Assembly (NCBI GenBank): GCA_041389825.1
Contig: JAWKRC010000007.1
Coordinates: 253,093-307,118, forward strand
DNA length: 54,026 nucleotides
Source of the DNA: Polyangiales bacterium
GTDB lineage: Bacteria > Myxococcota_A > Polyangia > Polyangiales > Ga0077539
Direction: 5' to 3'
Position numbers and translations under genes: made by a program
Notes under the pieces: model-generated
The model's input: only the letters and a program-made list of their open reading frames with translations
Told to the model about the DNA's origin: nothing
The model's database searches: none
Part shown: piece after piece, positions 21,990 to 54,026 of the stretch
Position numbering within the stretch: position 1 is the first letter of the stretch
Layout of the letters: every line of letters starts with the position of its first letter

Positions 21990-22066
21990 ACCCCGGGACT
22001 GTATCAGCTCTGCCTCAAGCGCAAAAGGTTTGTTCAACCTTCGACTTGGGGTAGAACCTCGGCCCG
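21990..22066. promoter_or_regulatory. Divergent intergenic region between the carH-like regulator and crtI (candidate light/B12-regulated promoter-operator)
   Basis: This is the only AT-enriched stretch in the area (gcaaaaggtttgttcaaccttcgacttggggtagaacc). The call rests on position alone. Confidence 0.3.
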
Positions 22067-31290: not shown

Positions 31291-31336
31291 CGATTCCTCG
31301 CCACTGTGTGACGGCCCTGGATAGACTCGCGGCTCC

Positions 31337-32180: not shown

Positions 32181-32391
32181 GTGCTGCGGCCCTTCGTAAG
32201 CCTCGCGCTCGACCCAGGCTCTGGCCCGACGAGGTCAACGTCTTCGGCGTACCTCCAGGCGCGGCCCTTCGAGGTCCGCTGCGACGCGCTCGCGACCCTC
32301 GACGTGGGCGAGCTCTTCGCGAAGCCTGCGGCTAGGGGTCCGACGACCCGCGCGTCTGTGACGCGACGTGGTGTAGAACTCGCACCGCCCG

Positions 32392-37781: not shown

Positions 37782-38924
37782 ATGCGTCCCTCTCGCTCTG
37801 GCCTCTCGCTCCTGCTCCTCGGCGCGCTCGCCTGGGGGAGCGCGTGCTCCGACAGCGCCTCCAACACCCCGACCGTCTGCACGCCCGCGTGCCGCACGGG
37901 CTTCGCGTGCGTGAACGGCGCCTGCGTCTCGGCGTGCAACCCTCCCTGCGGCAGCGGAGAGCGCTGCGACACCACCTCCTCCGTCGCGCGCTGCGTCGCG
38001 GCCGACACCGACGCCGCGGTCAGCGACGCGGCCGTCACCGACGACGTCACCACGCCCTCCGACCTCGGCGGCGACCTCGACGTCAGCGCGCCCGCCGACA
38101 CGGGCTCCCCCGTCGACGACGTCACCCAGCCGGCAGACGCGGGCGCGCCCACCGACGCGCCCATGGTCACCGACGTCGGCGCCGACGCGATGGCCGTCGC
38201 GTGCGGGCGCTCGGGCGAGCCGTGCTGCCAGGGCCGCGCGTGCCTCAACGGCGGGCAGTGCGTGTCGAGCGTGTGCGTGACCGCGACGCCGGTGATGAAC
38301 GAGTGCACGTCGAGCGGCGAGTGCGGCGACGGCGGCGTGTGCGGCGGCCCCTTCGAGTGCGGAGGCTCCCGCCGCTGCTACCAGTGCGAAGCCCCTCCTG
38401 GGATGGGTACCTTCGGCGCGGCCTGCATGAGCGGCAGCGAGTGCCGATCGGGCGTGTGCTCCAACCGACGGTGCTCGCAGCCTTGCGTGTACGGGTCCGC
38501 GGGCGACACGGCCTGCGCGGCGGCGGGCGCGGGCTACGTGTGCACGGCGGCGTTCTTCCGCCCGATGATGACCGACCCGATCACCACGCTGGGCGTGTGC
38601 AACCAGCGCTGCGCCGCGAACCGCGAGTGCGCTGGCGGCGCCGCGTGCGTGCCGCTCCTCGACTACTTCGCCGACCGCATGGACTTCATCTGCGCGCCCT
38701 CCACCCTCACCGGCGCGCCGGGCGACGCGTGCAACCCGAGCGGCGCCACGACGTGCCGGTCGCTCCTGTGCGTGCCCACGAGCATGACCGCGGGCTACTG
38801 CACCGCGCCCTGCGCGACGGACGCCGACTGCCCCGCCGCCGCGCCCGTCTGCGACGCGCTCACGGTGATCCGGCCGTCGGGCGGCGCGCAGGCGTCGCGC
38901 GGGTGCCGCCCCCGCGACATGTGA
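37782..38924 (+). CDS. Secreted Cys-rich lipoprotein (about 380 aa, more than 40 Cys)
   Basis: MRPSRSGLSLLLLGALAWGSAC is a signal peptide plus lipobox. Repeated C-x-n-C modules are separated by an acidic T/D/A-rich linker. ORF 36819..38924 upstream of 37782 is antisense to the FGE gene and was rejected. Confidence 0.65.
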   Translation: MRPSRSGLSLLLLGALAWGSACSDSASNTPTVCTPACRTGFACVNGACVSACNPPCGSGERCDTTSSVARCVAADTDAAVSDAAVTDDVTTPSDLGGDLDVSAPADTGSPVDDVTQPADAGAPTDAPMVTDVGADAMAVACGRSGEPCCQGRACLNGGQCVSSVCVTATPVMNECTSSGECGDGGVCGGPFECGGSRRCYQCEAPPGMGTFGAACMSGSECRSGVCSNRRCSQPCVYGSAGDTACAAAGAGYVCTAAFFRPMMTDPITTLGVCNQRCAANRECAGGAACVPLLDYFADRMDFICAPSTLTGAPGDACNPSGATTCRSLLCVPTSMTAGYCTAPCATDADCPAAAPVCDALTVIRPSGGAQASRGCRPRDM

Positions 38925-38996: not shown

Positions 38997-40348
38997 TCAG
39001 CTGCCCGGGTTGAACGTGAACGGGAAGCTGAAGTCCACGCTCCCGCCCTCGGGCGCCGGGAAGACCAGGCCCCGGATGCGCGACACGACGCAGGAGCCGA
39101 CCTCGGGGGCCTCGGACATGCCCGACGAGCTCGCGCTGGTGATGCGGCCCGAGGTGCCGATGGTGAAGCGCACCTCGACGCGGCCCGAGAGCGTGGGGTT
39201 GTTGCGCAGCGCGCGCTCGTAGCAGCTACGGATGCCGCCGAGCTGACCGCGGATGAGCCGCGCCACGGCGTTCGGGTCGAGGTTGCCCTCGCCGCCGATG
39301 GAGTCGCCGCCGCCGAGGCTCGCGTTGCCGCGGATCACGCGCTCGCGCACGATCTCGCCGCCGCTGCCGATGTTGTTGCCGCCGCCCTGCACGGTGCCCG
39401 ACTGGCCGAGGCCGCGGCCTCCGAGGCCGGCGCCGCCCGCGGAGGCGACGGAGCCGCGGCGCACGCCGCTCTGGCCCGAGGCGGCCGAGATGCCGCCGAC
39501 GTTCTGGAGGTCGCGCTCGGTGCCGGCCATGAGGCCGCCGTTGTTGAGCGCGTCGCGGGCGCTGTTCGAGCTCTCGCCCACGCCGGTGAGGGCCGCGAAC
39601 TCGGCGTTGTTGCTGAGGGCGTTGAGGGCCGCGTCGGCGGCGCGGGTCGCGGCGGCGGCGGCCGCCTCGGCGCGGTTGCCCGCGGCGCGCTCGCGGGCGG
39701 CGGCGGTCTCTCCGCGGAGTGCGAGGGCGTCGGGGCGGCGGCGGGGGCGGCCGCGGCCTCTTGCTGCTCGGAGGGCTCGTTGGTCTGCTCGGGCTCCTGA
39801 GGCTGCGGCTCTTCGGGAGCGGCGGGCTGCGAGAGCAGACGCACGAGGCGGGCGTCGTCGAGGCCCGCGTCGTCGACGATGGGGTCGTAGACGTATTCGA
39901 TGTACGCGACGCTCGCGATCGCCAGCACGAGGAAGAACGAGAAGCAGGCGTTGTAGGTCCAGTCGATGTTCTTGACCCAGCTTAGCGCGGATCGCCGCGG
40001 GGAGCTGCGGCTTGGGCTGCGGCGGGGCGGTACGACGAACTGGAAGAGGAAGGTGACGTCGCCGATCTGGATCTTGCCGCGCGAGCTCTCGGAGAGCGCC
40101 ACCTGCCAGCCCTGCGGGCCCTTGCGGGTGTTCGCGTTCGCGCGGAGATCCGCGAGGGACTTCACCCCGTCGGGCAGGGCGAGCCGCCCGTCCATCTTCT
40201 CGGTGAAGTTCGAGGAGTAGGTGCCCCCCGACATGGTGAAGAGCTCGAAGGAGGGCGGGAGCTCGTTGGCGTTCACCGTGAAGGTGTTGCGCTCGGTGGT
40301 GCCCACGGTCACCGAGTTGCGGTCACGGATGATCCGCTCCTCGGACAT
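38997..40348 (-). CDS. GltG/NfsG (PglI)-like protein: N-terminal FHA-like domain, TM helix, Pro/Glu-rich and Gly-rich linkers, AgmX/PglI TonB-C-like C-terminal domain; apparent frameshift in the low-complexity linker
   Basis: ORF 39335..40348 reads ...GKIQIGDVTFLFQFV (FHA-like end), then the TM helix ACFSFFLVLAIASVAYIEYVY, then a P/E-rich stretch. ORF 38997..39581 reads a G-rich stretch, then RLIRGQLGGIRSCYERALRNNPTLSGRVEVRFTIGTSGRITS...SFPFTF. The two ORFs overlap over 39335-39581. Confidence 0.55.
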
Positions 40349-40547
40349 CTTCGTGCCTGGATGATGCCGATGCGCAGCACCTTGGGCCCCGACGAGACCT
40401 TCGCCGCGGCCATCGCCTGGGTCATCGCCCCGGGGCGCCCGGGGCCGCGTTGTGTCGGTCCTGCCATTCGCTTCCTCCGCACTCTCTTCCCGGCGACCGG
40501 CGCCGGATCATCAACCCTGACACGCGAACCCCTCGCGGGGTTCCCGC

Positions 40548-40871
40548 TCAGAAGGGCTCCCTGCGCACCGCGTCGAGGATCTCTCGAATGAAGTGGATCG
40601 GCGCCTCGAAGTACGAGTACCCGAGGCTCGACCGGCCCGACACCGAGAAGGCGTAGGGCCGCTGGATCTCTCCGCGCACCTCGATGGTGGTGCTCGCGAC
40701 GTACACCCGTCGGCCGTTCTCGGTGCGCACCGTCGCCTGCACCTGCTCGCTGTTCGCGCCGGCGTCGGCGCCCGCGGTCGGGTTCGCGGGCGCGGGCTGC
40801 GCGGCCGCCACCGCGGGGGCGAGCAGCGCGAGGGCCGCTGTGAGCACCGCCGGTCTGAGAGACTTCTTCAT
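40548..40871 (-). CDS. Small secreted protein (GltF/NfsF-like position)
   Basis: MKKSLRPAVLTAALALLAPAVAAAQ is a signal peptide. The mature protein is about 85 aa. ATG at codon 9 of ORF 40548..40895. Confidence 0.45.
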   Translation of the reverse strand: MKKSLRPAVLTAALALLAPAVAAAQPAPANPTAGADAGANSEQVQATVRTENGRRVYVASTTIEVRGEIQRPYAFSVSGRSSLGYSYFEAPIHFIREILDAVRREPF

Positions 40872-41003
40872 CGCTGCTCCGTGGGAGGCTATCACCGGAA
40901 GCCCGGGAGACGCTACTGGGTGTTTCCCGTACTCCCGCCCTCGGGCGCGGGCGCGGGCTGGGCGGGGGCCTCGGGGGCGGGCTGCGCGGGCGCCGCGGGC
41001 GCT

Positions 41004-42515
41004 TCAGGCGCGGGCTGGGTGGCTGCGCGGGCGCCTCAGGTTGCGCGGGCGCGGGCGCGGGGTCGGCGCCGCCGCGGGCTGCGCGGCCTGTCGCTGGGCG
41101 TTGCGGCGGGCGCGCTCCAGCGCGGTCTGGGTGCGCTGGATGAGCTGCGGGAGGCGCGCGAGCTGGGCCTCGTTGTCTTCGCGGCGAGGGTGCTGCGCGT
41201 AGCCCGAGCCGAGGGCGTCGCGGTAGCGGGTGAAGGCCGCCTGGGCCTGCTGGAAGAGCTGGAGCCTGCGCTCGATGTTCTCGACGCCGGTGTTGGGCAC
41301 GCCGCGGGCTTGATCCGCGTAGAGACGGCCCATGTTGTAGTGGACCTCGGCGAGGCTCGGGTCGAGCGTCTGCGCCCGCTGGAGCTCTTGCATCGCCCGG
41401 TCGTACTGGCCCGAGGCGCGCAGGGCGTCGCCGTAGTTCAGGTGGCCCTTGCCCCAGCTCGGCGCGAGCGCGACCACGGCGCCGAGGTTCTCGAGGGCCT
41501 GCGGGTAGTTGCCCGCCTGCAGGAGCTGGATGCCGAGGTTGTTCCTCGCCTCGGCGAAGTCGGGCGCGAGCTCCACCGCGCGCTGGAACGACGTGATCGC
41601 CCCCGGCACGTTGTGGTCGGCCTCGATCTGCAGGAGCCCCCGAAGGTGCACCACCTCGGCGTTGGTCGCGCCGAGGCCGCTGTTGGGGTTGTTCGGGTCC
41701 GACCCGTTGATGAGGTCGTTGACGATGTAGAGCGCGAGGTCGAGGCGGCCGAGCGCGCGGTAGGCCTCGGCCACGGCGAGCTTCGCGGGCACGCTGCGCT
41801 CGTCGAAGCGCAGGATCTGCCGCGCCTCTTCGATGGCCTCGTTGGCGCGGTTGTTCATCACCAGGAGCCGCGCGTACTCGGCGCGGATCCCCGCGCTGCG
41901 CGCGTTGCTGCGGGCGAGGGCCTGCACGAAGCTCATCGCCTCGGCCACGCGGCGCTGACGGATGAGCATGCGGGAGCGGGCCACCACCGCGGGCTCGTAG
42001 TCGGGCTGCACCGAGAGCGCGCGCTGGTAGTAGTTGTCGGCCTGCGCGTCGTTGCCCTGGCGCTCGGCGATGACGCCGAGGTTGTACGCGGCCTGCGCGG
42101 CGCGAGGCTCGGCCTCCAAGGCCTGACGGAACGAGCTCGCGGCGTTGTCGAGCTGACCCGCCCTCGCGGCCTGCAGGCCCATCTGGAACGCGCTCGCCGC
42201 GTTGCCCGTGAGGGTGACCCGCGAGGCCGCCCCGCTCGCCTCGGTCTGCGCCGCGGGCTGCGGGGTGGGGGTCTGCTCAGGGGTCGGCGTGGGCGTGGGC
42301 GTCGGGGTCGCGGTGACCGTCGACGCGCCGGTGTTGGAGGTCGACTCCGACACCCCCGACGCGCCCTGCTCGCCTCCCGAGGAGGTCTGCTGCGAGGACT
42401 GCGTGGGGGTGGTCGTCGAGGGGCGGTTCTCGTTCTCCGAGGAGCACGCGACGGCCCCAAGCGAGGCGAGGAGCGCGAGCGTCGGTGCGAGAGGCGAAGC
42501 GCGCATCGGTGTCAC
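41004..42515 (-). CDS. TPR-repeat lipoprotein (GltE/NfsE / AglT-like)
   Basis: LALLASLGAVACSSE is a signal peptide plus lipobox. An S/T/P-rich linker is followed by six or more TPR units (AYNLGVIAERQGNDAQADNYYQRAL ...). 503 aa. Confidence 0.7.
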   Translation of the reverse strand: MTPMRASPLAPTLALLASLGAVACSSENENRPSTTTPTQSSQQTSSGGEQGASGVSESTSNTGASTVTATPTPTPTPTPEQTPTPQPAAQTEASGAASRVTLTGNAASAFQMGLQAARAGQLDNAASSFRQALEAEPRAAQAAYNLGVIAERQGNDAQADNYYQRALSVQPDYEPAVVARSRMLIRQRRVAEAMSFVQALARSNARSAGIRAEYARLLVMNNRANEAIEEARQILRFDERSVPAKLAVAEAYRALGRLDLALYIVNDLINGSDPNNPNSGLGATNAEVVHLRGLLQIEADHNVPGAITSFQRAVELAPDFAEARNNLGIQLLQAGNYPQALENLGAVVALAPSWGKGHLNYGDALRASGQYDRAMQELQRAQTLDPSLAEVHYNMGRLYADQARGVPNTGVENIERRLQLFQQAQAAFTRYRDALGSGYAQHPRREDNEAQLARLPQLIQRTQTALERARRNAQRQAAQPAAAPTPRPRPRNLRRPRSHPARA

Positions 42516-45500
42516 TCCGTCGCGAGGCCGGGGGCGGCCACGGGGCTGGTCTGCGGGAGCACGGCGCCGGGGGCCTCGCCGTCGAACATCCCCGGGCGGT
42601 ACTGGAAGACCTGCTGCCGCGAGAGGGCCGGCTCGATGAGCGGCTGGTTCTCCTCGAGGCGCAGGCGCTCAAGGGCGCGCGACGCGAAGGGCGTCGGGAT
42701 GTTCTGCTGGCGCGCCGTGTAGACCGCGGTGCCGTAGTTGATGATCGCGAGCGTGCGCTCGTCGGTGGCCTGCTGGTCGAAGGCGGCCTGGGCGCGCTGC
42801 CGACGCTCCTCGATCTGGTTGTTGAGGTTGTCCTCGGCCTGCTGGCAGCGGTCCATGGTCTCCAGGGCGCGGTCGGGGTTGATCCGCTCCAGGCGCTGCG
42901 CCGCGGTGCGGCACTGCGTGATCGCGTTGCGCGCGCGCTGCTCCGTCGCCCGCTCCGACGCGCTGAGCTGGAGGAGCGAGCCGATGCGCTGCTCCTGCGT
43001 GGCGAGGTGCTCGTGGGCCTCGCCCTGGCGGGTGAGCGCGCCGATGGAGTACTCTCCGCCGCGCAGGGCCACCACGTCGCGCGCGGCGCTGTCGATGGCC
43101 TGCAGGCGCGTCTGCCGCTCCTGGATCTGTCGCGTGAGCGAGGCCGAGTCGCCCGCCTGGAACTCCGAGCGCGTGAACTCGGTCACCTGGTCGTCGAGGT
43201 CGCGGAAGAGCGCCTCGGCGGCGTAGGCGGCCGCGGGCGAGCCGGGCTGCTGACCCGTCGCGCGGTAGACCTGCACCACCTCGCGCAGGGCGCGGCGGTA
43301 CTGGGTGTCGTTGTTCTGCGCGCGGTACGCGAGGGCGATGTTGTACTGGGCCCTCACGCGGTAGCGCGCGTTCTCGGCCGTCGCGGGGTAGCGGCGGAGG
43401 TACTCCTGGAGCGAGCGGATGGCCTCGCCCCACTCCTGCGCGCGGTAGGGGATGTTCGCGGCCTGGAACTCCGCCTCGCTGCGCTCCGCGCCGGGGTTCG
43501 AGCGCGGGATGAAGTTGGTCCACGCCTGCCGCGCCTGCGACCACCGACCGAGGTTGGTGTTGATGAGCGCGATGGAGGCGAGCGAGTCGTGCACGTGGGC
43601 GTCGTGGTCGTTGGCGCGAGCGAAGCGCTGATCGTTCACCACGTTGCCGTAGTACCGGATCGCCTGGTCGTAGTCGTAGATGCGCTCGAGGTTCACGCCC
43701 GCACGGAAGTTCGACACCTCGAGGATGTTGATCCTTTGCGCGAGGTTCTCGCCCTCGAGCTCGTGGCCCTGCGCGTCGCGGGTGTTGTTGTACTCGTTGG
43801 TGATGCGGACGTAGGTCTGCGTCGCCGTGTCGAAGCGCCCGGTGCGCTCGTACGCGAGGGCGGTGTAGAAGGTCGCGAGGGCGGCCTGCGGGTGGTTGCG
43901 GTTGGCCTCGACGGCCTCTTGCATCTGCCGCGCGGCCTGCTCGTAGAGGGCGCGAGACTGCGCCGGGTCGCGCGTCTGCTCGGCGCGGTGGAAGGTGTCG
44001 AGCGCGAGGCGGAAGGTGCGGTCGGTGAGCACCTGCCCGATCACCTCGGAGCGGACGCCCGCGCACTGCCGCCGCGACTGCTCCTGCGCGAGGTTCTCCT
44101 GCGCCTCCTGGTCGCCCTGGAGGACATATAGGTTGTTGAGGTCCGCGAAGGCCGCGCCGGCGACGAGCTGGTCGTTGCAGTAACGCGTGAGGACCTCGCG
44201 GTACATCGTCACCGCGTTCGGGTTGATGTTCGTGTCGACCTGCCCGAAGCGGAAGAAGGTGCGCGCGTTGAGGTAGAAGAACTTCGCGCGGTACGGCGGG
44301 TTGCTGTACGGCTGCTCAGGGTCTTCCTCGACGACGTCGCGGAGCGCGGCGGCGTTGTCGAGGCCCTCGGGGACTCGGATCGCGTACGCGTTGCGCGCTT
44401 CCATCAGGCCGCGCACCGCGTCGGGGATGTTCAACGGGTTCACCGTCTGCCCCGTCATCGGCGGCCGCGTGCACGCCTCAGCGGCGTCGTCGGCGATCAA
44501 GCGCGCGCCGGTGTCGTCGACGATCTCCGCGGGCGCGATGCCCGCGCGCACGGCGATGCACGGGTCCAGCCGACGGAGCTGCGCCTCGCGGCGGATGAAG
44601 GCCTCCTGCGCCTTCACCGCCATGTACGCGGCGGCCGCGAGGTACTGGTCGTTCTCGTTCGACTCGCGCACGTCGGCGTAGGCGCGCGACGCCTCTTGAT
44701 AGTCGCCCGACCAGTAGAGCGCGTCGGCGCGGTTGTACCGGAACTCGTACGCGGCCTCGTCGTTCGGGTAGTTCCGAATGAACTGCGTATAGGCCTCGAC
44801 CGCCGTGTGGTACTCCTCGTTCGCGCGCTGCAGGGCCTGGCGGTACTCGTTGAAGGCCTCGGCCTGCGCCGCCCCCGTGAGCGAGCGCGCCTCGATGCCG
44901 CGGCGCACCGCCTGCTGCCGGAGCTGCGTCGCGTTCTGGTGGTGCGTGATCGCGAGGTCGTGGAGGCTGTTGCGCGCGACGGTGTCGGCGTAGCGCTGGG
45001 CCTCGGGGTGGTTGTTGTTGTTGTTCCACCACTCGGTGCCCTCGGTGAACTGCGCGAGGGCGCCGCGGGCGCGGATCGCGGCGTCGAACTGACGCTGCCG
45101 CGAGTACGAGTCGGCGATGCGCACCACCACCCGCGGCGCCCGCTCGTGCAGCGGGTACAGCGAGAGGAAGATCGAGTAGATCGTGATCGCCTCGTAGTAC
45201 TTCGTCTGCTGGAAGTAGTCGTCGGCGAGCTCGAGGTACGCGTCGGCCGTCCACGGGCGGTTCTGCGGGATGTACGTCGGCCGACCCGGCACCGCGGGGG
45301 GCCGCTCGTCGCGGTTCGCCCAGCGGCGCGCCTGGATCTGCGTCGGGTCCCCCGGCGACACGATGCGCATGATGCCCGCGCAGTCGAAGGGCCGCGTCGC
45401 GTCGGGCGGAGGCCGCGAGATCGACTCGACCACCCCCTGGCAGCGCGTGGCGTCTTCGCCCGGCCCGAGGCCCCAGTCGCTCTCGGAGAAGATCACCCCG

Positions 45501-47029
45501 ACCCACTTGATGGTGTCGCTGCGGTTGCCGCGCGCGGCCTCCTCGGCGCCGGCGTAGTCGTAGTAGTCGAGCAGGAGCGAGAAGTTCCGCAGCGCCTGCG
45601 GATACCCGTTCTGCATGCGGAAGTACGCCCAGCCGACCTTGTAGAGCGACTTCGACCAGAAGGCGCCGTACTCGAGGTTGGCGTCGAACTGCGCGCGCGC
45701 CTCGGCGGGCATCTGCACGACGTTCTCGCCCGCGCCGGCGATGCCCTCGGCGGGCGCGCGGTTGGCGGGCTGCGGCGGGCGGGGCCGCGTCGAGAGGCGC
45801 ATCGAGGCCTGGTACGCCGCGATGGCGAGCGCGTTGCCGTCGTCGTCGCGCGCGTTGTCGAAGTGCCAGTCGCCGACGTAGTAGAAGACCTCGCCCGCGT
45901 AGCGCGAGGGCTGGCCGTTGGGCCCGCGCATGGGCTGGCACTGCGCGTAGAGCTGCGGGATCGGCGCGGTCTGGTTCGGCGCGAGCTCGGGCATCGCGAC
46001 GGGCGGGACTGCGGCGTCGGCGTCGGCGCCCGCGTCGGCCTCAGCGATGGCGGGAGAGATCAGCTCGGGCCCGCGCGGGCGGAGCATATCGAAGAGGTTC
46101 GGGCACATCACCGGCGGGCTGGAGTTGCCCAGCGGCGCCATCAGGTCGAGCCCGTGCTCGCCCTCGTAGTGGAAGCTCGCCGGGCACACGAGGCCGCGGT
46201 AGGCGCTGATGGACTCGTCCTCGCGGCCCATCTCCTTGAGCACCCAGCCCAGGAGGTAGTGCGTCGCGTCGCCGAGGCGGAACTGCGGGAAGCGCGCGAT
46301 GATGTGGCGGTAGAGCAGGATCGAGCAGCGGAAGTCCTGCGGGGGCGCGACGATGTCGTCGGCGGGGAGGTTCTGCGCGCGGCGCGCGGCGATCTCGCGG
46401 TCGGTGCGCTCGTCGGCCTCGAGCTTCGCGTAGGCGGCCTCGTCGTAGTAGAGCTCCGCGAGGCGGAACATCACGTCGGGCGTGCGCTCGCGGTCCTCGG
46501 GGTAGGTCTGCAAGAAGCGCTCGAAGACCTCGATGGCGTGGCGGCGCGCCTCGCGCTCGGCGTCGCGCTCGGCGCGGATCTGCCGCTCGAAGCCCGTGCG
46601 CAGCCGCGCGAGCTGCCGGTCGTGCTCGCGCGCGAGCAGACCGTTGATGCTCGTGCGAAAGCCCATCCCGCGCGTCAGGAATCCGTTGACCTCGTCCTCG
46701 AGCAGCCGCAGCGAGGCTTGCTGCTCCGCCGAGGGATCGGGCCGCGGCGCCACCGCCTGCGGAGGCCGCGTGTCACCCAGGAGCGACGACCCCGCCGCGG
46801 GCTGCTCGGGCGTGCGCGGCGTCACGGCCGCCCCCGGGTCCGCGGGCGAAGGGTTCGCCCCCGGGTCCGCCGGGTTGGCGGGCGCCGTCGGCTGCGCGCC
46901 GTTCGTCGGCTGCGCCGCGGTGCCCGTCTGCCCACCGTTCAACGGCTGCGCGTTCGCGGCCGGGCGCACCAGCGCCAGCGCGAAGAGCAGCAACCCCAGT
47001 CGCCAGCGAAGAACCCTGCTCATGGTCAC
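42512..47029 (-). CDS. Large periplasmic TPR-repeat protein (GltD/NfsD / AgmU-like), 1505 aa
   Basis: Signal peptide MTMSRVLRWRLGLLLFALALVRPAANA, then TPR-like helices along the full length and a coiled-coil C-terminal region. Start and stop overlap the neighbouring genes by 4 bp. Confidence 0.7.
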   Translation of the reverse strand: MTMSRVLRWRLGLLLFALALVRPAANAQPLNGGQTGTAAQPTNGAQPTAPANPADPGANPSPADPGAAVTPRTPEQPAAGSSLLGDTRPPQAVAPRPDPSAEQQASLRLLEDEVNGFLTRGMGFRTSINGLLAREHDRQLARLRTGFERQIRAERDAEREARRHAIEVFERFLQTYPEDRERTPDVMFRLAELYYDEAAYAKLEADERTDREIAARRAQNLPADDIVAPPQDFRCSILLYRHIIARFPQFRLGDATHYLLGWVLKEMGREDESISAYRGLVCPASFHYEGEHGLDLMAPLGNSSPPVMCPNLFDMLRPRGPELISPAIAEADAGADADAAVPPVAMPELAPNQTAPIPQLYAQCQPMRGPNGQPSRYAGEVFYYVGDWHFDNARDDDGNALAIAAYQASMRLSTRPRPPQPANRAPAEGIAGAGENVVQMPAEARAQFDANLEYGAFWSKSLYKVGWAYFRMQNGYPQALRNFSLLLDYYDYAGAEEAARGNRSDTIKWVGVIFSESDWGLGPGEDATRCQGVVESISRPPPDATRPFDCAGIMRIVSPGDPTQIQARRWANRDERPPAVPGRPTYIPQNRPWTADAYLELADDYFQQTKYYEAITIYSIFLSLYPLHERAPRVVVRIADSYSRQRQFDAAIRARGALAQFTEGTEWWNNNNNHPEAQRYADTVARNSLHDLAITHHQNATQLRQQAVRRGIEARSLTGAAQAEAFNEYRQALQRANEEYHTAVEAYTQFIRNYPNDEAAYEFRYNRADALYWSGDYQEASRAYADVRESNENDQYLAAAAYMAVKAQEAFIRREAQLRRLDPCIAVRAGIAPAEIVDDTGARLIADDAAEACTRPPMTGQTVNPLNIPDAVRGLMEARNAYAIRVPEGLDNAAALRDVVEEDPEQPYSNPPYRAKFFYLNARTFFRFGQVDTNINPNAVTMYREVLTRYCNDQLVAGAAFADLNNLYVLQGDQEAQENLAQEQSRRQCAGVRSEVIGQVLTDRTFRLALDTFHRAEQTRDPAQSRALYEQAARQMQEAVEANRNHPQAALATFYTALAYERTGRFDTATQTYVRITNEYNNTRDAQGHELEGENLAQRINILEVSNFRAGVNLERIYDYDQAIRYYGNVVNDQRFARANDHDAHVHDSLASIALINTNLGRWSQARQAWTNFIPRSNPGAERSEAEFQAANIPYRAQEWGEAIRSLQEYLRRYPATAENARYRVRAQYNIALAYRAQNNDTQYRRALREVVQVYRATGQQPGSPAAAYAAEALFRDLDDQVTEFTRSEFQAGDSASLTRQIQERQTRLQAIDSAARDVVALRGGEYSIGALTRQGEAHEHLATQEQRIGSLLQLSASERATEQRARNAITQCRTAAQRLERINPDRALETMDRCQQAEDNLNNQIEERRQRAQAAFDQQATDERTLAIINYGTAVYTARQQNIPTPFASRALERLRLEENQPLIEPALSRQQVFQYRPGMFDGEAPGAVLPQTSPVAAPGLATE

Positions 47030-49446
47030 TGCCCCTGGGTCCCCGACCCGTCGCCCGTCGGCGTCGACCCGCTCGACCCGCCCTCGTTCGAGGCGCCCCC
47101 GTTGGCGTTGTTGCCGTTGCCCTCAGCGTTGGGTTGACCCCGGCCGAGCCGCGCGGCGTCTTCAGGCGAGGCCCCCTCGGTCACCTCGGCGAACTCGTCG
47201 TTGAGCGCAGACACCTCGCGGTTCTGCTCCTCGGCGAGGAGGCGCGCGCGGTTGTTGTGCTCCTCGCGCTCCTCCCAGGCCACGTCGACGAGCCCGAGGT
47301 CGGCGCGCATCACGATCTGATAGAACTGCAGCTCCACCTCGCGGAACTGCGACAGGATCAGGTTGCCCACCACCTGCTCCGACTCCCGCTCCAGCGCCCC
47401 GAGGCGCTCGCGGTAGCCCGCCACGCGGCCCTCCTCGGCGCGCACCTGGTCGCGGATCGCGACGATGCGCCGGTCGACCTCGGCGTTCACCCGCCCGTCG
47501 AACTCCGCGAGCTGGGCGTCGAGGGTGTCGAGCCGCGTGAGGAGCGCGTCGGCCTCGCCCGGCATCCGGCCCGCGTTGCGCAGTGCCGCCGCCTCGCGCT
47601 GCACGAGGTCGCGGAGCTGCGCGCGCAGGTCGACGTCGTGCGCGTAGCGGGGGTCGCCCGGGCCGATCTGCGCGCGCGCCTGCGCGACCATCCGGCGGAT
47701 GTTCGTCACGCGGTCGCGGTACTGCTGGATCGCCGCGCGGAACTGCGTGAGCTCCTGCTGCACCTGCGCGCGGTCGAGCCCGGCGCCCTGGTGCATCGGG
47801 TCGTTGAGGTAGCGCTCGTTGGCCACCACCATCGCCTCGAGCGCGTCGACGCGCTGCTGGTTGCGCTGGAGGTTTTGCGAGAGCGTCTGCAGCTCGTTCT
47901 CGGCCTGGCGGTCGCGGCGGCGCAGGCCGTCGTCGTTGGTGGGCATCCGCCCGACCTGCGCGGCGAGCGAGCGGCGCTGCGAGATCACGCTCTGCAGGTC
48001 GACGTTGCCGGCGTCGGCGTTGCGGTCCATCGCCGCCGAGGCGATCGCGTCGCGGAGCTGCGCGGTGCGGTTGGTGATCTGCCAGATGCGCTGCCGCGCG
48101 CGCCCGAGGTCTTGGAAGATGTGCGAGCGCGACGGCGCGTTGATGGCCGCGTTGAGCCGGTCGATGAGGTCCGACGCCTCGCGCACGTAGGTGCGGCAGA
48201 CGTTGAGGTCTGACACCACGCGGAGGCTGTCGTCGAGCGTGCCCTCGTGGCGCACCCACGCGAGCGCGGGCGCGGGGATGAAGCTCGACGCGTCGAAGAC
48301 CTGCAGGTTTGAGCGCACAAGCTCCTGGAAGAAGCGCTCGGGGTTCGCGCCGCCGTTGTTCTGGTGGAGCTGCTGATAGATGGGCCCGAACTGCTGGCGC
48401 ACGTCCTCGAAGACCTGGCGCGCGCGGTCGAAGCGGCCCGTGCGGAGGAGCAGGTTGCCCCAGAGGATGCGGCCCTCGGGCACGAGGGGAGAGTCAGGCG
48501 ACGAGATCGACAGGATCTCGAGCGCGCGCTCGGCGCGGATCGCGTCGCCGAGCTTGATGTACGCCCACGCCTGCTCGAAGAGCGCGCGGTCGAAGTACGC
48601 CGAGCTCCGCGGCACGCGCTGGTAGGCCTCGATGGCGGCGTCGAAGTTCTCGCGCTCGACCTGCAGGCGGCCCACGGCGAGGATCGCGAGGTCGACCACG
48701 CGCTGCTCGTCGCTGCCCTCGACCTGGAGCTGGCTCACCCGCTGAAAGGCCTCGATGGCCTCGGGGTACCGCTGCTGGGCCGTGAGGATCGCGCCGAGGA
48801 AATACCGCGCCTGGGGGTAGATCGGCGCGGTCTGGGGAATCGCCTCGAAGGCCGCGCGCGCGCCGTCGTAGTCGGGCGTCGCGCGGAGGAAGAGGTACTT
48901 GCCGCGGATGTACGTCGTCTGGGCCTCGAGCTCAGACGGGGGGATCTGCCCGAGCTGGCGGAAGTACTCGTCGACGCCCTCGTAGTTGTTGGTGCGCAGG
49001 GCGATCTCGATGAGGCGCCCGAGCGCGCGCTGCACGAAGGGGCGGAACACCGGCTCGTTCGCGTGGCGCAGCACCTCGCGGAAGCGCGAGCGCGCGCCGA
49101 AGCGGTCGCCCGCGAGGTAGAGCGCGTCGCCGAGGAGGTAGAGCCCCTGCGGGTACGCGGGGGTGTTGGCGTAATTCTCGACGATGTCGGTGAAGAGCAC
49201 CGAGGCGCGCGCGTAGTCGCGCAGGCGGTAGAGGAGCTCCGCGTCGGCGAAGCGCTCTTCGACGCTCGTCGAGCGCTGCGGGCCGCCGCCGGCGCCGGGT
49301 CGCACGCTCTCGGTCGACTGGCGCGCCTGCGCCTCGAGCGAGCCGACCTCGTTGCTGACCGCGGTGAGGTCCTGCGCGGCGAGTGGCGCCGCGAGGAGGG
49401 TCAGCACCGCGCCGAGGGAGACGGCGCGACGGCCGCGGCGGTTCAT
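47026..49446 (-). CDS. Secreted TPR / coiled-coil protein (GltC/NfsC-like), 806 aa
   Basis: Signal peptide MNRRGRRAVSLGAVLTLLAAPLAAQ. The N-terminal half is TPR-like and the C-terminal half is rich in coiled-coil heptads (QQ...RR patterns). Confidence 0.6.
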   Translation of the reverse strand: MNRRGRRAVSLGAVLTLLAAPLAAQDLTAVSNEVGSLEAQARQSTESVRPGAGGGPQRSTSVEERFADAELLYRLRDYARASVLFTDIVENYANTPAYPQGLYLLGDALYLAGDRFGARSRFREVLRHANEPVFRPFVQRALGRLIEIALRTNNYEGVDEYFRQLGQIPPSELEAQTTYIRGKYLFLRATPDYDGARAAFEAIPQTAPIYPQARYFLGAILTAQQRYPEAIEAFQRVSQLQVEGSDEQRVVDLAILAVGRLQVERENFDAAIEAYQRVPRSSAYFDRALFEQAWAYIKLGDAIRAERALEILSISSPDSPLVPEGRILWGNLLLRTGRFDRARQVFEDVRQQFGPIYQQLHQNNGGANPERFFQELVRSNLQVFDASSFIPAPALAWVRHEGTLDDSLRVVSDLNVCRTYVREASDLIDRLNAAINAPSRSHIFQDLGRARQRIWQITNRTAQLRDAIASAAMDRNADAGNVDLQSVISQRRSLAAQVGRMPTNDDGLRRRDRQAENELQTLSQNLQRNQQRVDALEAMVVANERYLNDPMHQGAGLDRAQVQQELTQFRAAIQQYRDRVTNIRRMVAQARAQIGPGDPRYAHDVDLRAQLRDLVQREAAALRNAGRMPGEADALLTRLDTLDAQLAEFDGRVNAEVDRRIVAIRDQVRAEEGRVAGYRERLGALERESEQVVGNLILSQFREVELQFYQIVMRADLGLVDVAWEEREEHNNRARLLAEEQNREVSALNDEFAEVTEGASPEDAARLGRGQPNAEGNGNNANGGASNEGGSSGSTPTGDGSGTQGQ

Positions 49447-50222
49447 CGCTGCGCGCTCCCCTCGCTGGTTCCCGGCGGGGGCGGCGTCGACGCGGACTCA
49501 GACGCCTCGCGCAGGGTGATGACCCGCTGGACGTAGCGCACCGCGGGGCGGCTCTCGGGCGGCTCGAGCGGCCCGCCCTTCTCGTAGCCCACCACCCGGA
49601 TCTGGATGGCCTTGCCCTCGGGCACCGAGAAGCTCTGCGTCGAGCGCACGGTGAAGCGGTAGCCCTTCATGTAGGGCAGGCCCGCGCCGAGGTAGGTGAG
49701 GTTCACGCCGAGCGTGTGGTCGCCCGAGCCCACCTGGCCGTTGTAGACGGCGAACTCGCGGCGGTCGGCGAGGGCGCCGCTCTCGTCGTTGCGCGTGAGG
49801 ATCGGCGCGCCGTCGAGGGAGTACACCGCGCCGATGAGCCGGTACGAGCCGCCCATCTCGTTCTGGTGGACGATCTGCGCGCGCGAGCCGCCGACGGTGT
49901 TCTGCAGCACCGACTCGGCGAGGAGCGACAGCCGGGCCTTGGAGCGGAAGATCTCTTCTTTCAGCTCGTTGATGCGCGCCTCGAGGTCGCGCAGGCGCAC
50001 GACGTACTGCTCGCCGGTCATCGCCCCGCCGTCGGCGCCGACGCCCGTAGGCGCGGGCATCGCCGTGGTGGGCGCCCCGCCGTCGGCGTCGGTCGTCATC
50101 GGCGTCGCCGCCGGGGTGGTCGCGCTGCTCGCGGCGCCCGCGTCGCCCACCGGCTGCGCGACGCTGACCCGCGCGAAACCCAGGAGAGCCCAAAAGGCCA
50201 CCAACGCCAGACGCACTCGCAT
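49443..50222 (-). CDS. Secreted beta-rich protein, paralogue of the next gene (GltB/NfsB-like)
   Basis: Signal peptide MRVRLALVAFWALLGFARVSVAQP. It shares blocks with the 50277..51098 product: QNEMGGSYRL / QNEMGSTFRL; GDHTLGVNLTY.G / GDHSVTVSLEYQG; GYRFTVRSTQSFSVPEGKAIQIRVVGYEKGG / GYTFRARSVQTVSVPEGRALRLTVIGYEQGG; RPAVRYVQ / RPAIRYAQ. Confidence 0.5.
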   Translation of the reverse strand: MRVRLALVAFWALLGFARVSVAQPVGDAGAASSATTPAATPMTTDADGGAPTTAMPAPTGVGADGGAMTGEQYVVRLRDLEARINELKEEIFRSKARLSLLAESVLQNTVGGSRAQIVHQNEMGGSYRLIGAVYSLDGAPILTRNDESGALADRREFAVYNGQVGSGDHTLGVNLTYLGAGLPYMKGYRFTVRSTQSFSVPEGKAIQIRVVGYEKGGPLEPPESRPAVRYVQRVITLREASESASTPPPPGTSEGSAQR

Positions 50223-50276
50223 GTTCGTTCGCCCCTTCACGTCCACGACTCCGTCGACGGCTCCGCCGCGAGCCCG

Positions 50277-51098
50277 TTAGGGCTCGGAGCCCGCCGCGGG
50301 GGCGGGCGCGCTGTCGTTTCGCTGGTTCTGCGCCCGCGCCTCGGCGACCGTGGTCACCGACTGCGCGTAGCGGATGGCGGGGCGGTCTTCGACGGCGGTC
50401 GCCGCGCCCCCCTGCTCGTACCCGATCACCGTCAAGCGCAGCGCCCTCCCCTCGGGGACGCTCACGGTCTGCACCGAGCGCGCGCGGAACGTGTACCCGC
50501 GGATGTACGAGAAGATCCCGTTGCCGTTGCCCTGGTACTCCAGGCTGACGGTGACGGAGTGGTCGCCCGACGCGACGCGGCCGTTGAACACGGCGAAGTC
50601 GTGCAGCTCGGCGAGGCTGCCGTTGTCGTCGACGCGCGTCGCGATGGTCGCGCCGTCGAGGCTGTACGTCGCGCGCACGAGGCGGAACGTGCTGCCCATC
50701 TCGTTCTGGTGCTGGATGATGAGCTGCGCGCCGCCGCCGCCCGCGCTGTCGAGCACCATCGCGGTGATCTGCTGCATGCGGGCGTAGGTGCTGCCGATGT
50801 CGTTCGAGAGCGCGGTGACCTCGCGGTCGATGTCGCGGATGGTGATGGACACCGCGCCGGGCGCGACGGCGGAGACGTTTTGCGGCGTCGGCGTCGCGGC
50901 GAGCGCGGGGGCCGGGGCGACGAGGGGCGCCGATACGGGCCCCGTGGGCACCTGCGCGGCGGGCGCGGCCGCGGGGGGCTGCACCATCGCGGGCGGGTCC
51001 GCGGGCTGCGACCACGCGACGGCGGGCGCGGTGAGGAGCGAGAGCGCGGCGGCGGTGCGCCACCAGGAAGAAAGACCGCTTGAAGTGCGAGTGGACAC
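50277..51098 (-). CDS. Secreted beta-rich protein, paralogue of the previous gene (GltA/NfsA-like)
   Basis: GTG start (VVSTRTSSGLSSWWRTAAALSLLTAPAVAWSQP) preceded by a GAGAGG SD-like sequence. The region of ORF 50277..51353 upstream of it is Arg-rich junk. Confidence 0.5.
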   Translation of the reverse strand: MSTRTSSGLSSWWRTAAALSLLTAPAVAWSQPADPPAMVQPPAAAPAAQVPTGPVSAPLVAPAPALAATPTPQNVSAVAPGAVSITIRDIDREVTALSNDIGSTYARMQQITAMVLDSAGGGGAQLIIQHQNEMGSTFRLVRATYSLDGATIATRVDDNGSLAELHDFAVFNGRVASGDHSVTVSLEYQGNGNGIFSYIRGYTFRARSVQTVSVPEGRALRLTVIGYEQGGAATAVEDRPAIRYAQSVTTVAEARAQNQRNDSAPAPAAGSEP

Positions 51099-51400
51099 GA
51101 CGCGATGCCTCTCGATCCTATGGGGCGCCGGGCGCGGGCCCGACCTTGGGAGGCGGGTGTACCCCAGTGCGATGCGGAGGGTCAACGCAACGCGACGACC
51201 GCCGACAGGCGGTGTGTGAGGCCGCGAGTTCACATCGGGCTTGGACCTGGGCGGGCCGCCGCGGATAGAATCCCGCCGGTCGCGGAGGACGGAAGGAAGT
51301 GCATGCAGGCGAACGCTCGCGGTAGGGGCGGAGACCGCACGCGGGGCTCGCACGTCTCAACGCTCACCCCGATGAGACCGCCGCCCCGACGAGGGGCCGT

Positions 51401-52012
51401 GTGAGCGCCGAGCGCCAGCACGATCCGGATGAGGTGCTGCTGGAGCGGTTCCGGCGGGGGGACGCTCGCGCCTTCGAGGACCTCATGCGACGACACCGCA
51501 ACGCGCTCTTCAACTTCATCTACAGGTCGGTGCGCAACCCCGCGACGGCCGAGGAGATCCTTCAGGACACGTGGCTCCGGATCGTTCAGGGCGCGGGGGA
51601 CTTTCAGCGCGCGTCGAAGTTCTCGACCTGGGCGTGGACGGTGGCCCGCAACCTCTGCATCGACCACGCGCGCAAGGCCGCGCTGCGGCGTCACCCCTCG
51701 CTCGACGCGCCGCTCAAGCGCGACGAAGACGGGCCCACGCTGCTCGACTCGCTGCGCGACCCCGACGCGAGCGTCGACCGCGCCGCGGTGAGCCGACAGC
51801 TCCAGGGCGAGATCGCCGCGGCCATCGAGGCCCTGCCCGACGACCAGCGCGAGGTGTTCTTGATGCGCGAGTACGGGTGCCTCCCGTTCAAGGAGATCGC
51901 CGAGGTCGTCGGCGCCCCTGAGAACACGGTGAAGTCACGGATGCGCTACGCTCTCGAACGCCTTCAAGAGCGCCTCGCCGAGTACGAGGACTACGCGAAG
52001 GCCCTGGGTTGA
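51401..52012 (+). CDS. ECF (sigma-70 family, RpoE-like) sigma factor
   Basis: Region 2 ILQDTWLRIVQG.. and region 4 YGCLPFKEIAEVVGAPENTVKSRMRYALERL. 203 aa. Confidence 0.85.
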   Translation: MSAERQHDPDEVLLERFRRGDARAFEDLMRRHRNALFNFIYRSVRNPATAEEILQDTWLRIVQGAGDFQRASKFSTWAWTVARNLCIDHARKAALRRHPSLDAPLKRDEDGPTLLDSLRDPDASVDRAAVSRQLQGEIAAAIEALPDDQREVFLMREYGCLPFKEIAEVVGAPENTVKSRMRYALERLQERLAEYEDYAKALG

Positions 52013-53355
52013 CCATGGACTGCGAAGCCTGCACCGACCTCCAGCTCGACCTGCTCTACCAAGAGCTCGCCGAGCCTCGCGCCGCCGAGGCGCAGCGTCA
52101 CATCGACGACTGCGCCGACTGCCGCGCGGCGTGGGAGCGGCTGGTCCGCGGTCGTCGCCTCGGGGGTCGCCTCGCCCCCGTCGAGGCCCCCGCGCCGAGC
52201 GCGTCGCTCCTCGCCGCCATCGCCGCCGCGGCGGAGAAGCACCGAGCCGCGCCGCCCGCGCCCGACGCCGGCGGCGCCGGCGCCGCGCCCGTGGTGCCCA
52301 TCGACGCGGCGCGCGCCCGCCCCTCGTGGATGCGCCGCCTCGGAGAGATGGCCATGCGCCGCCAGGTCGCGATGGCCGCCGTGTCGATCATGGCGATCGG
52401 GATCGGGCTCCGCTTCGTCCCCTTCCGATCGCCCACGCAGCCCGCGCCGCCCGTGGAGTCGACCGCGCCCGCGGTGATCCCCGCGACGGAGCTCCCGCGC
52501 GCGCAGCCGCCTCCCCCCGCCGCGGAAGACGACGGGAGCGCGGCCGCCGCGCGCCGCGGCCGCGCCGCGCCCGCGTACCTCGGCTCGACCCCGGTGGTCG
52601 CCGCGAGGCAACCCTCGTCTCACGCCGCTTCGACGAGCCCGCTCGCGGCGAACGCGCGCCTCGCGCAGGGCTCCGCCCCTGCCGCCGCGCCTGCCGCCGC
52701 CGAGGAGTCGCCCGCCGACGAGCGGAACAACGCCGTCGGCGGCCTCCAGCTCCAGCGTGAGGTGGGTCGCGGCGGCGGGGCGGCGAGCGCGGGCGGCCTA
52801 GGGTCCGCCAACCTCGGCAGCGCGGGGTCCGCGGCCCGCGGCCGGAGCGCCGTCGACGCGCTGCGTTCGCCAGTCACCGAGGGCACGTACGAGGCGCAGC
52901 AGCAGGCGCCCGCCGCGGCCAACGTCCCGATGCAGGGCCGCGACTCGGCCGAGCCCGACCTGCCGCGCGACGCGCCCGCGCCCCTCGCGCAGGGCTGGCG
53001 CGCGCACCGCGACCAGGGCGAGCACCGCCGCGCCGCGGGCGACCTCCAGGGCGCGATCACCGAGTACCAGCGCGCGATCGACAGCGCGCCCGACTCCGAG
53101 CGGCGCGCGCTCGCGGTGACCCTCGAGGGTCTGCTCCGGCAAGCGGGGCGGGTCGACGACGCGATGCGCGTGCGCGGTCAGTACGTCACCCGCGCGGCCG
53201 AGTCTCCTGCGCAGGCCGAGTCGGTGCCGCAGTCGTCGAACGTGCGGCCGACGACGCCGACCCCGAGGAGCTCGCCCGCGCGGCCGATGGCGCCTCGCCC
53301 CTCCCGCCGCGCGGTGACCAACCTGAACGACTCGACCAACCAGTACGGGTTCTGA
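52009..53355 (+). CDS. Zinc-finger (ZAS-type) anti-sigma factor with TM helix and Ala/Pro-rich periplasmic region
   Basis: Its start overlaps the sigma gene stop (ATGA). It carries the HIDDCADCRAAW (Hx3Cx2C) ZAS motif, the TM helix VAMAAVSIMAIGIGL, and a C-terminal TPR-like ending. Confidence 0.7.
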   Translation: MTMDCEACTDLQLDLLYQELAEPRAAEAQRHIDDCADCRAAWERLVRGRRLGGRLAPVEAPAPSASLLAAIAAAAEKHRAAPPAPDAGGAGAAPVVPIDAARARPSWMRRLGEMAMRRQVAMAAVSIMAIGIGLRFVPFRSPTQPAPPVESTAPAVIPATELPRAQPPPPAAEDDGSAAAARRGRAAPAYLGSTPVVAARQPSSHAASTSPLAANARLAQGSAPAAAPAAAEESPADERNNAVGGLQLQREVGRGGGAASAGGLGSANLGSAGSAARGRSAVDALRSPVTEGTYEAQQQAPAAANVPMQGRDSAEPDLPRDAPAPLAQGWRAHRDQGEHRRAAGDLQGAITEYQRAIDSAPDSERRALAVTLEGLLRQAGRVDDAMRVRGQYVTRAAESPAQAESVPQSSNVRPTTPTPRSSPARPMAPRPSRRAVTNLNDSTNQYGF

Positions 53356-53368
53356 CGGCGCCCTCGCG

Positions 53369-54026
53369 TCAACGCTCCGCCACGGAGCGCCGGAGCACCG
53401 TGCCGTTGCCGAAGAGCACCGTGTCGACGACGCCGCGCGTCGACCGCGCCGCGACGGGCGCGAGGTGAGACGGCCAGCGCTCGGCGATCACGTCGACCGC
53501 ACCGTCGGGCGCGACGGCGCGCAGACCCGCGGCGGAGACCTCGACGCGCACCCGCTCGCGAGAGAACACGCCGTGGCCTTCGTAGGGCGACGCGAGCGGG
53601 TCGGAGAGCACCACGCCGCGGCGCCACCGACGCGCGTCGCGCGTCACCCAACCGCGGCTCCCCGCGCAGGGGACCACCTCGACGGAGCCTCCCACCGCGC
53701 GCGCGTCGCGGACCGGTGACGGGATCGCGAGCCGCCACGTTCGCCCGCCGTTGTCGCTCACGTGGACGCGCCCCGCGCAGCGGTCGCCCTGCGAGGGCGA
53801 GAAGCCCACGAGCCTCCGTCGGTCGAACACCTCGACGAGGCGGAAGGGGAGAAGCGTCGCGCGCCATCGGTCCCCGCCGTCGTCGGTCCACCAGAGCGCG
53901 GTGCCTGCGATCCAGTAGGTGTCGTCGTCGACGATGCCTCCGCGCACGCCGAGGTTCACCGCGCCCTCGGCGGGTGAGACCAGGGTCCACCGCCGGCCGC
54001 CGTCCTCGCTCTCGGCGACGCCGCCT
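53369..54026 (-). CDS. BNR/Asp-box repeat (sialidase-like beta-propeller) protein, 5' partial (continues beyond window end)
   Basis: Three S-x-D-x-G-x-x-W Asp-box repeats (TDDGGDRW, SDNGGRTW, and SEDGGRRWT in the frame extending to the window edge). Confidence 0.55.
   Translation of the reverse strand, partial: GGVAESEDGGRRWTLVSPAEGAVNLGVRGGIVDDDTYWIAGTALWWTDDGGDRWRATLLPFRLVEVFDRRRLVGFSPSQGDRCAGRVHVSDNGGRTWRLAIPSPVRDARAVGGSVEVVPCAGSRGWVTRDARRWRRGVVLSDPLASPYEGHGVFSRERVRVEVSAAGLRAVAPDGAVDVIAERWPSHLAPVAARSTRGVVDTVLFGNGTVLRRSVAER

Follow-up and report, generated by a model that had tools for sequence, protein, structure and literature searches.

Is a compact operon that resembles both the Agl-Glt gliding machinery and the Agl-Nfs spore-coat machinery of Myxococcus xanthus one of these two systems, or a third one? 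The question is raised by a window (the whole stretch of DNA analysed, 54,026 nt) from a Polyangiales bacterium (GCA_041389825.1, contig JAWKRC010000007.1, positions 253,093-307,118 of the forward strand), which has a G+C content of ~73% and is chromosomal, with genes for ribosomal proteins, pth, PEP carboxylase, fumarase and others. On its minus strand, positions 51098-38997 form an unbroken coding run of seven regions with a strong third-position GC bias, referred to here as p1 to p7. The cluster is real, widely conserved and related to Glt, and it falls into a paralogue class that had been catalogued before; it is neither the Glt nor the Nfs system. It probably encodes a G4-class Glt-like envelope complex, G4 being a class of paralogues of the Agl-Glt gliding machine and the Agl-Nfs spore-coat machine. 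What has been established for the locus is homology, gene order, linkage, predicted fold and promoter conservation.

Gene content, order and class of the cluster

An earlier note on this DNA had described seven packed minus-strand genes, and its layout is essentially right: the seven coding regions are present, and the 4-bp start/stop overlaps that it reported are found at p2/p3 (49443-49446), p3/p4 (47026-47029) and p4/p5 (42512-42515). Six of the genes (p1-p6) are clean single open reading frames (ORFs), while the seventh is not an intact ORF. The window proteins were compared with the profiles of Pfam and NCBIfam, applying the equivalog cut-offs of the latter.

The proteins p3-p7 are homologues of GltC, GltD, GltE, GltF and GltG, and their genes follow one another as nfsC-G do. 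The GltC-like secreted protein p3 (47026-49446, minus strand, 806 aa), whose gene overlaps both of its neighbours by 4 bp, holds tetratricopeptide repeats (TPRs) matched by Pfam, followed by a coiled-coil-like C-terminal half. Its top NCBIfam match is gliding_GltC (NF033756), restricted to the TPR part and with 83.4 bits against a cut-off of 450, which places it below the equivalog level. The GltD-like giant TPR protein p4 (42512-47029, minus strand, 1505 aa) matches only the YbgF and BamD TPR models in NCBIfam. It has 68 homologues, all of them from Polyangiales or from metagenome-assembled genomes (MAGs) of Myxococcota and the nearest with 63% identity, and in every related cluster the D position is taken by a p4 homologue, with identities of 24-63%; more distant homologues (22-30%) are found at the D position of other clusters. 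The GltE-like TPR lipoprotein p5 (41004-42515, minus strand, 503 aa) carries a lipobox-like LGAVAC motif and has gliding_GltE (NF033758) as its top NCBIfam match, again under the equivalog cut-off (124.9 versus 225 bits). In the GltF position, p6 (40548-40895, minus strand, 115 aa, with ATG 40871 as the probable start) is a small secreted protein with a signal peptide, and its C-terminal 45-70 aa are conserved at the same position in related loci; the small proteins found at this position in G4-class clusters were listed as GltF homologues by Luciano et al. (2011). The description of these four proteins in the earlier note, as a secreted TPR/coiled-coil protein, a giant TPR protein, a TPR lipoprotein and a small secreted protein, is borne out.

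The last gene, p7 (38997-40467, minus strand), is GltG-like and frame-disrupted, with a span of 1471 nt (3n+1). It starts at ATG 40467, after the ribosome-binding site (RBS) GGAGGAAG, and encodes a cytoplasmic FHA-like domain, a transmembrane (TM) helix, a Pro/Ala linker and an AgmX/PglI TonB-C-like domain. This C-terminal domain passes the AgmX/PglI model NF033768 (88.5 bits, cut-off 40), the check that had been proposed for it, and the C-terminus also passes TonB_Cterm TIGR01352 (31.6 bits, cut-off 27.1); a sequence search of the PDB with the same domain gave no match. Compared with the GltG equivalog NF033760, the p7 pieces reach 45.5 and 78.7 bits, below the cut-off of 650, and cover only model positions 224-412 and 477-647. 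A structural study from 2025 has described in GltG an N-terminal FHA domain (residues 1-114) plus a second, central FHA-like domain located just before the TM helix (PMC11761067). The protein p7 begins at the part matching this central domain, without the canonical N-terminal FHA, and Pfam finds no FHA domain in it.

The first two genes encode A-like proteins. The most likely start of p1 (50277-51098, minus strand, 273 aa) is GTG 51098, with the RBS GAGAGG ahead, and the protein shows a signal peptide, a Pro/Ala linker, a helix and a beta-sandwich domain, with 66-74% identity to its orthologues. For p2 (49443-50246, minus strand, 267 aa), the probable start is ATG 50222, which yields 259 aa and agrees with a 97%-identical 259-aa protein annotated elsewhere. 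Both proteins are paralogues (38% identity), and neither has a match in Pfam or NCBIfam. The AlphaFold2 (AF2) model of p2, built from a 30-sequence alignment, comprises a signal peptide, a disordered Pro/Ala linker, a 40-residue long helix (78-117) and an eight-strand beta-sandwich (121-243); the eight-strand domain is modelled with a pLDDT >90, and its fold matches are sandwiches only, of the transthyretin/TssJ-like kind. GltA/B and NfsA/B, by experiment and AlphaFold, are OmpA-like outer membrane (OM) barrels (PMC4488436, PMC11761067), and no gltA/B homologue was listed for the G4-class clusters (Luciano et al., 2011). According to the model, the protein encoded just upstream of the gltC-like gene would be a beta-sandwich and not an OmpA-like OM barrel of the GltA/GltB type, and p1/p2 are better regarded as predicted helix plus beta-sandwich proteins than as GltA/B or NfsA/B. 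The earlier note's two paralogous secreted beta-rich proteins can therefore be kept as far as paralogy and secretion are concerned, but not as GltA/B- or NfsA/B-type proteins.

The family of p1 and p2 is large, with 909 and 1582 matches in two protein searches. Among the matches listed, the labels are 'hypothetical', 'dihydrolipoamide acetyltransferase' and 'DUF1192'; a helix/beta-sandwich family of >1500 members currently appears mis-annotated under the last two of these names. The A-like protein is the best-conserved component across cluster types, with 45-49% identity for p2 where D identity is 24-29%. Among the loci kept from the genome scan described below, two A-like paralogues are confined to the clade of the window (11 loci), and the other 52 loci carry one.

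A scan of GTDB species genomes with the D-like protein retrieved at least 562 loci, of which the best 80, all from MAGs and with identities of up to 63%, were used. The A-like, C, D, E and G genes are colinear in all 49 loci containing them, which belong to related Polyangiales and Sandaracinaceae MAGs, and the same order of A-like, C, D, E, F and G is found in loci L001-L006 and L087. Loss of this order among relatives, which the earlier note had named as a reason to abandon its proposal, is therefore contradicted by the data.

Paralogous Glt-like clusters are not new, as they were catalogued in 2011. In that catalogue (Luciano et al., 2011, supplementary file 5), the G4 class comprises MXAN_1919-1923 of M. 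xanthus, sce5940-5945 of Sorangium cellulosum, Hoch_6494-6498 of Haliangium ochraceum and STAU_2684-2688 of Stigmatella aurantiaca. The proteins of M. xanthus measure 809 aa (MXAN_1923), 1111 (1922), 490 (1921), 91 (1920) and 447 (1919); those of the G4-type cluster of Sorangium, 802 aa (sce5945), 1431 (5944), 449 (5943), 82 (5942) and 511 (5940); and those of Haliangium (Hoch_6494-6498), 823, 1202, 422, 120 and 490 aa (Luciano et al., 2011). The same source gives 673, 1218, … and 640 aa for Glt, and 512, 1219, 499, 96 and 682 aa for Nfs. The C-G proteins of the window, with 806, 1505, 503, 115 and ~490 aa and an FHA-less G, fit the G4 rows and not the Glt or Nfs rows. The window shares with the G4-class clusters the C-D-E-F-G order, a C protein of ~800 aa, a D protein that is large (1100-1430 aa in that class), a small F and an FHA-less G (447-511 aa), and no gltA/B/H/I/J/K homologue has been listed for them.

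BLAST homology extends this likeness to two Anaeromyxobacter-type contigs (L004/L006), in which the order is mglB, mglA, A-like gene, C (~770 aa), D (~1170 aa), an extra TPR gene, E, F and G (~450 aa). In these loci, the gene ahead of C is A-like, as in the window, and its product shares 45-46% identity with p2. Since mglA and mglB of M. xanthus are MXAN_1925 and MXAN_1926, beside the G4 genes MXAN_1919-1923, the mglBA-adjacent clusters match the position of the M. xanthus G4 cluster. The C, E and G proteins of both the mglBA-adjacent and the obg-adjacent cluster types likewise remain below the Glt equivalog cut-offs. Taken together, the window combines a C protein of ~800 aa, a G protein within the FHA-less 450-510 aa range, a small F and no barrel A/B, as expected of the G4 class, and on a broader level it holds the Glt-like core complex (Group B: gltC, D, E and G), with an AgmX/PglI G-type protein and with TPR proteins of the C, D and E types that are linked and keep a conserved order. 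It differs from the G4-class clusters in the duplication of the A-like gene, the longer D protein (1505 aa), the disrupted frame of G and the presence of a divergent pair of genes, for an extracytoplasmic function (ECF) sigma factor and a ZAS anti-sigma factor, instead of mglBA.

These data add to the catalogue that the class has spread very widely among uncultured Polyangiales and Sandaracinaceae and keeps a rigid gene order; that its best-conserved subunit would be a previously unrecognised helix/beta-sandwich protein and not an OM barrel; and that a ZAS-type ECF pair accompanies the class in Polyangia.

The interrupted p7 gene

As read from ATG 40467, p7 ends after 52 codons, and its orthologues in related contigs are single ORFs of 489-490 aa. 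When these intact orthologues were used as tblastn queries, p7 appeared split over three frames, with switches near 40350, 40030, 39985 and 39715. Residues 1-40 lie in frame one (40467-40348) and the FHA-like domain in frame two (40357 to ~40030), the first switch being located at 40340-40360 (minus strand; …LRIGIIQ / GTKMSEERII…), at a GG/GGG run. The second and third switches (39970-40035, minus strand) enclose the conserved PPQPKPQLPAAIRAK stretch, which is read in frame three (40025 to ~39975). Frame two then resumes with the TM helix and the beginning of the linker (to ~39715), and after the fourth switch (39705-39730, minus strand; …PTPSHSAE / TAAARERAA…) the remainder, including the C-terminal domain, is in frame three.

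Two explanations have to be weighed here. The four frame shifts might be genuine, in which case the gene for the TonB-like energiser would be a fresh pseudogene and the machine would be non-functional in this strain. This is a serious possibility, although not the one that we favour. It agrees with the concentration of four switches within 750 bp while the ~11 kb of operon upstream are uninterrupted, with the long housekeeping genes of the window, which are likewise free of frame breaks, and with the normal spectrum of G/C homopolymer runs in the window. However, p7 is as conserved as its intact orthologues are: the identity of its pieces relative to that of p4 is 1.07 and 1.17 in the window, versus 1.11 and 1.09 when intact orthologues are paired, and the codon-position GC bias is kept. 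Four independent indels in the absence of any other sign of decay would also be unusual. Moreover, a codon-position GC model detects ~8 more stop-less frame switches scattered through the window (~1180/1294, 9361, 15338, 21688, 23067, 31530, 32802 and 35631), which point to sequence-quality problems. We therefore lean slightly towards an artefact, within the view that the frame shifts are either local sequencing or assembly indels or very recent decay.

Some of these further switches deserve a separate mention. In the region 31336-33950 (plus strand), a gene with a Ser/Thr-kinase-like start (GYSVEGVLGRGGVGVVFAATHEGAPVAVK) and the next one, for a polytopic membrane protein, each seem to change frame, with switches near 31530 and 32802; the upstream frame is stop-less for 650-790 nt, and Pfam recognises nothing in any single ORF. 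The switches at ~1180/1294, 9361, 15338, 21688, 23067 and 35631 are possible indels or pseudogenes and bear on the question of the p7 artefact, and Pfam searches of the ORFs at 31.3-37 kb and of other messy regions of the window gave no informative match on further frame shifts. The region 21062-24465 has an ORF with a B12-binding domain (21062-21445, minus strand) close to a gene for phytoene/squalene synthase (23611-24465, plus strand), with a messy coding signal in between, and may represent a light-regulated carotenoid locus.

Gliding, sporulation and housekeeping machines as alternatives

The view taken in the earlier note, that the canonical Agl-Glt gliding machine of this organism has been gathered into one operon, appears highly improbable. 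It would account for the C-D-E-F-G order, for the best NCBIfam matches, which are the Glt models for GltC, GltE and GltG, and for the two paralogous ~260-aa secreted proteins encoded upstream of C, reminiscent of gltB-gltA-gltC. The window does share with Agl-Glt homologous C, D, E, (F) and G proteins, the AgmX/PglI TonB-C-like domain and presumably the combination of an inner membrane (IM) TonB-like transducer with a periplasmic TPR scaffold. Nevertheless, the GltC, GltE and GltG scores are far under the equivalog cut-offs, 5- to 8-fold for GltC and GltG, the G protein comes without the N-terminal FHA, and predicted beta-sandwich proteins, p2 among them, stand in the place of the barrels. The cluster has no GltA/B/H barrels, no GltK/CglB and no GltI/J, with no aglRQS nearby; in fact, none of GltH, GltI, GltJ, GltK/CglB and AglRQS was seen among the window ORFs scanned. 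The statement that everything is present in one operon is thus an overstatement, and nfs itself is a single operon. Furthermore, Sorangium holds a separate canonical glt set (sce2906-2921, listed as sce2906/7, sce2914-18 with a 681-aa FHA GltG, and sce2920/1) besides its sce5940-5945 type cluster (Luciano et al., 2011), and an M. xanthus mutant in the G4 D gene glides normally, with no motility defect (PMC3169522). The Glt/Nfs composition and order proposed earlier therefore hold at the level of C-G homology and arrangement, but with the G4 type in place of Glt or Nfs.

An Nfs-type machine for spore-coat assembly is even harder to defend. The single operon and its A-B-C-D-E-F-G order, with the same succession from C to G, are those of nfsA-G, but the short NfsC (512 aa), the NfsG with FHA and TonB domains (682 aa), the OM barrels NfsA/B and NfsH all go unmatched here, judging by the sizes and architecture in the published table, and the nfs-type rows of that table exist only for Myxococcus and Stigmatella. 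Least credible of all is a housekeeping envelope system of the Tol-Pal/YbgF or BamD kind unrelated to Glt: p3 and p4 do match YbgF and BamD TPR models, and the window shares with Tol-Pal and TonB-ExbBD an IM-anchored protein with a Pro-rich linker and a TonB_C-like domain and TPR partners resembling YbgF, but those matches lie below cut-off and reflect generic TPR similarity, the best matches are to GltC, GltE and GltG wherever such models exist, the AgmX/PglI model is passed, the entire gene order is that of Glt-like clusters, and the cluster differs in lacking stator, TolB and Pal, in its much larger TPR scaffold and in the cytoplasmic FHA-like domain of its transducer.

Several observations weigh against the reading of the locus as a G4-class complex with its own sigma factor. 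The assignment to G4 is based on architecture, sizes, synteny and published tables, and not on phylogeny. In the given sequence, p7 cannot be translated as one protein. The window contains no motor genes, and the gene and Pfam tables of L001-L006 and L087 show none up to 10 kb from the cluster. As the cluster encodes no integral OM component, a trans-envelope span is putative. Finally, upstream of p1 there is no ECF-type promoter that would place the operon in the regulon of the sigma factor, the conserved operon-facing promoter being of the sigma-70 type.

Annotation calls for caution: the window cluster should not be labelled as a gliding or sporulation apparatus, and the gene for its energiser is disrupted in the present sequence. 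As handles on a third type of Agl/Tol-like machine, sce5940-5947 and MXAN_1919-1924 are available.

The ECF sigma factor and a possible mode of action

The ECF sigma factor (51401-52012, plus strand, 203 aa) holds the Sigma70_r2 (PF04542) and r4_2 (PF08281) domains and passes the NCBIfam model NF009166 (237.6 bits, cut-off 206), and its orthologues are 68-78% identical and occupy the same divergent position. The anti-sigma factor gene (52009-53355, plus strand) starts either at ATG 52015, 3 nt past the ECF stop, or at TTG 52009, with a 4-nt overlap. Its product presents a ZAS motif, one TM helix and a periplasmic Pro/Ala region with weak TPR similarity. The N-terminal motif is C-x23-HxxxCxxC (RHIDDCADC preceded by a Cys), which 33 of 49 loci share; Pfam did not detect zf-HC2 itself. 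The divergent intergenic region (51099-51400) measures 302 bp, and the coupled ECF/ZAS pair that the earlier note had placed ~300 bp upstream on the opposite strand is thereby confirmed. This association is not peculiar to the window, as an ECF gene lies up to 3.5 kb upstream of the cluster in 41 of the 54 loci with enough sequence, and is divergent in 40.

The promoters of the intergenic region give a more restrained picture of the role of this pair. Facing the operon is a conserved sigma-70-type promoter (51156-51185, minus strand), with a -35 element TTGACC (51185-51180) and a weak -10 element TACACC (51161-51156). Upstream of the A-like gene, the pattern CGTTGACC-N16/17-T(G)nTATAA is present in 30 of 47 loci, in the form of a textbook sigma-70 promoter (TTGACC-N17-TATAAA). 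The ECF gene is preceded by a sigma-70-like promoter (51242-51271, plus strand; TGGACC-18-TAGAAT), whose TAGAAT/GATTCTAT element L003 and L005 have conserved, and by an ECF-type promoter-like motif (51332-51356, plus strand; (G)AGACC-N16-CGTC(TCA)), 45 nt upstream of the gene. The (G)AGACC-N16-CGTC motif is shared by L003, L015, L001, L009 and others, always facing the ECF gene only; within the window it is not specific, with 5 matches versus 3.9 expected, which is not above chance. As an ECF-type motif is missing on the operon side, it is only through its conserved linkage that the sigma/anti-sigma pair qualifies as a candidate regulator or sensor, so the earlier suggestion of a regulatory role is retained on the strength of that linkage and not of the operon promoter, which is sigma-70-like.

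In canonical Glt, GltG binds AglR, its TonB-like domain binds GltD, and GltF bridges GltG and GltC (PMC3169522, PMC11761067); GltE binds GltD, and GltC docks the OM module. By homology to these contacts, a mode of action can be proposed for p1-p7, in which interactions, energisation and output are inferred. The IM protein p7 would couple a proton-driven stator of the TolQR/AglRQS type, encoded elsewhere, to a periplasmic scaffold that might consist of the GltD-like p4, the TPR lipoprotein p5 (GltE-like), the small connector p6 (GltF position) and the GltC-like p3. The secreted helix plus beta-sandwich proteins p1/p2 would replace the GltA/B OM barrels, or the OM module, and would probably dock on p3. 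Basal transcription of the operon could be driven by the conserved sigma-70-type promoter, with the co-inherited ECF/ZAS pair probably sensing or tuning the system. In this sequence, the interruption of p7 by four frame shifts would reflect either local indel errors or a system that has just been inactivated. No MotA/TolQ/ExbB or ExbD/TolR gene is present in the window. A run of small genes at 17.5-21 kb, considered as a TolQR/AglRQS candidate, was rejected, as it corresponds to rpsF-rpsR-rplI, pth and rplY.

It is conceivable, but on balance doubtful, that the G4 clusters constitute a functionally distinct envelope machine, and not a spare copy of the gliding or sporulation apparatus, in which a TonB-like transducer and a TPR scaffold act on secreted helix/sandwich subunits and which, in Polyangia, has its own ECF/ZAS stress-signalling monitor.

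The gene for a Cys-rich lipoprotein that lies convergent with p7 (37860-38924, plus strand) keeps its position in the closest clade (L001, L007, L008, L011 and L021; 47-50% identity), and a BNR-like gene beyond the anti-sigma factor (53369-54025, minus strand) is likewise conserved. In the mglBA-adjacent type (L004/L006, 13486-15155), the extra gene between D and E encodes a ~526-aa TPR protein, and in distant ECF-linked clusters (L005, 15929-16519) a ~196-aa protein is encoded between F and G; both are absent from the window's clade. A third cluster type (L087, 6927-18586) follows rplU-rpmA-obg and comprises the A-like gene, C, D, a short E (360 aa), F and G, downstream of which are encoded a 192-aa protein and a 431-aa OM barrel of the BBP2 type, so that some relatives do carry a linked barrel. 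In L020 and L083 (match 10001-~14000), a second D-like TPR paralogue shares 45-50% identity with p4 and has no other cluster genes around it; the MAG that holds L020 also holds the full cluster L009. Finally, in L088 (10001-13483), a distant D-like TPR protein is encoded alone in a polysaccharide locus (Wzy_C, glycosyltransferases and GH44), with an ECF-like sigma factor nearby, a setting that recalls the link of Nfs to the spore-coat glycan.

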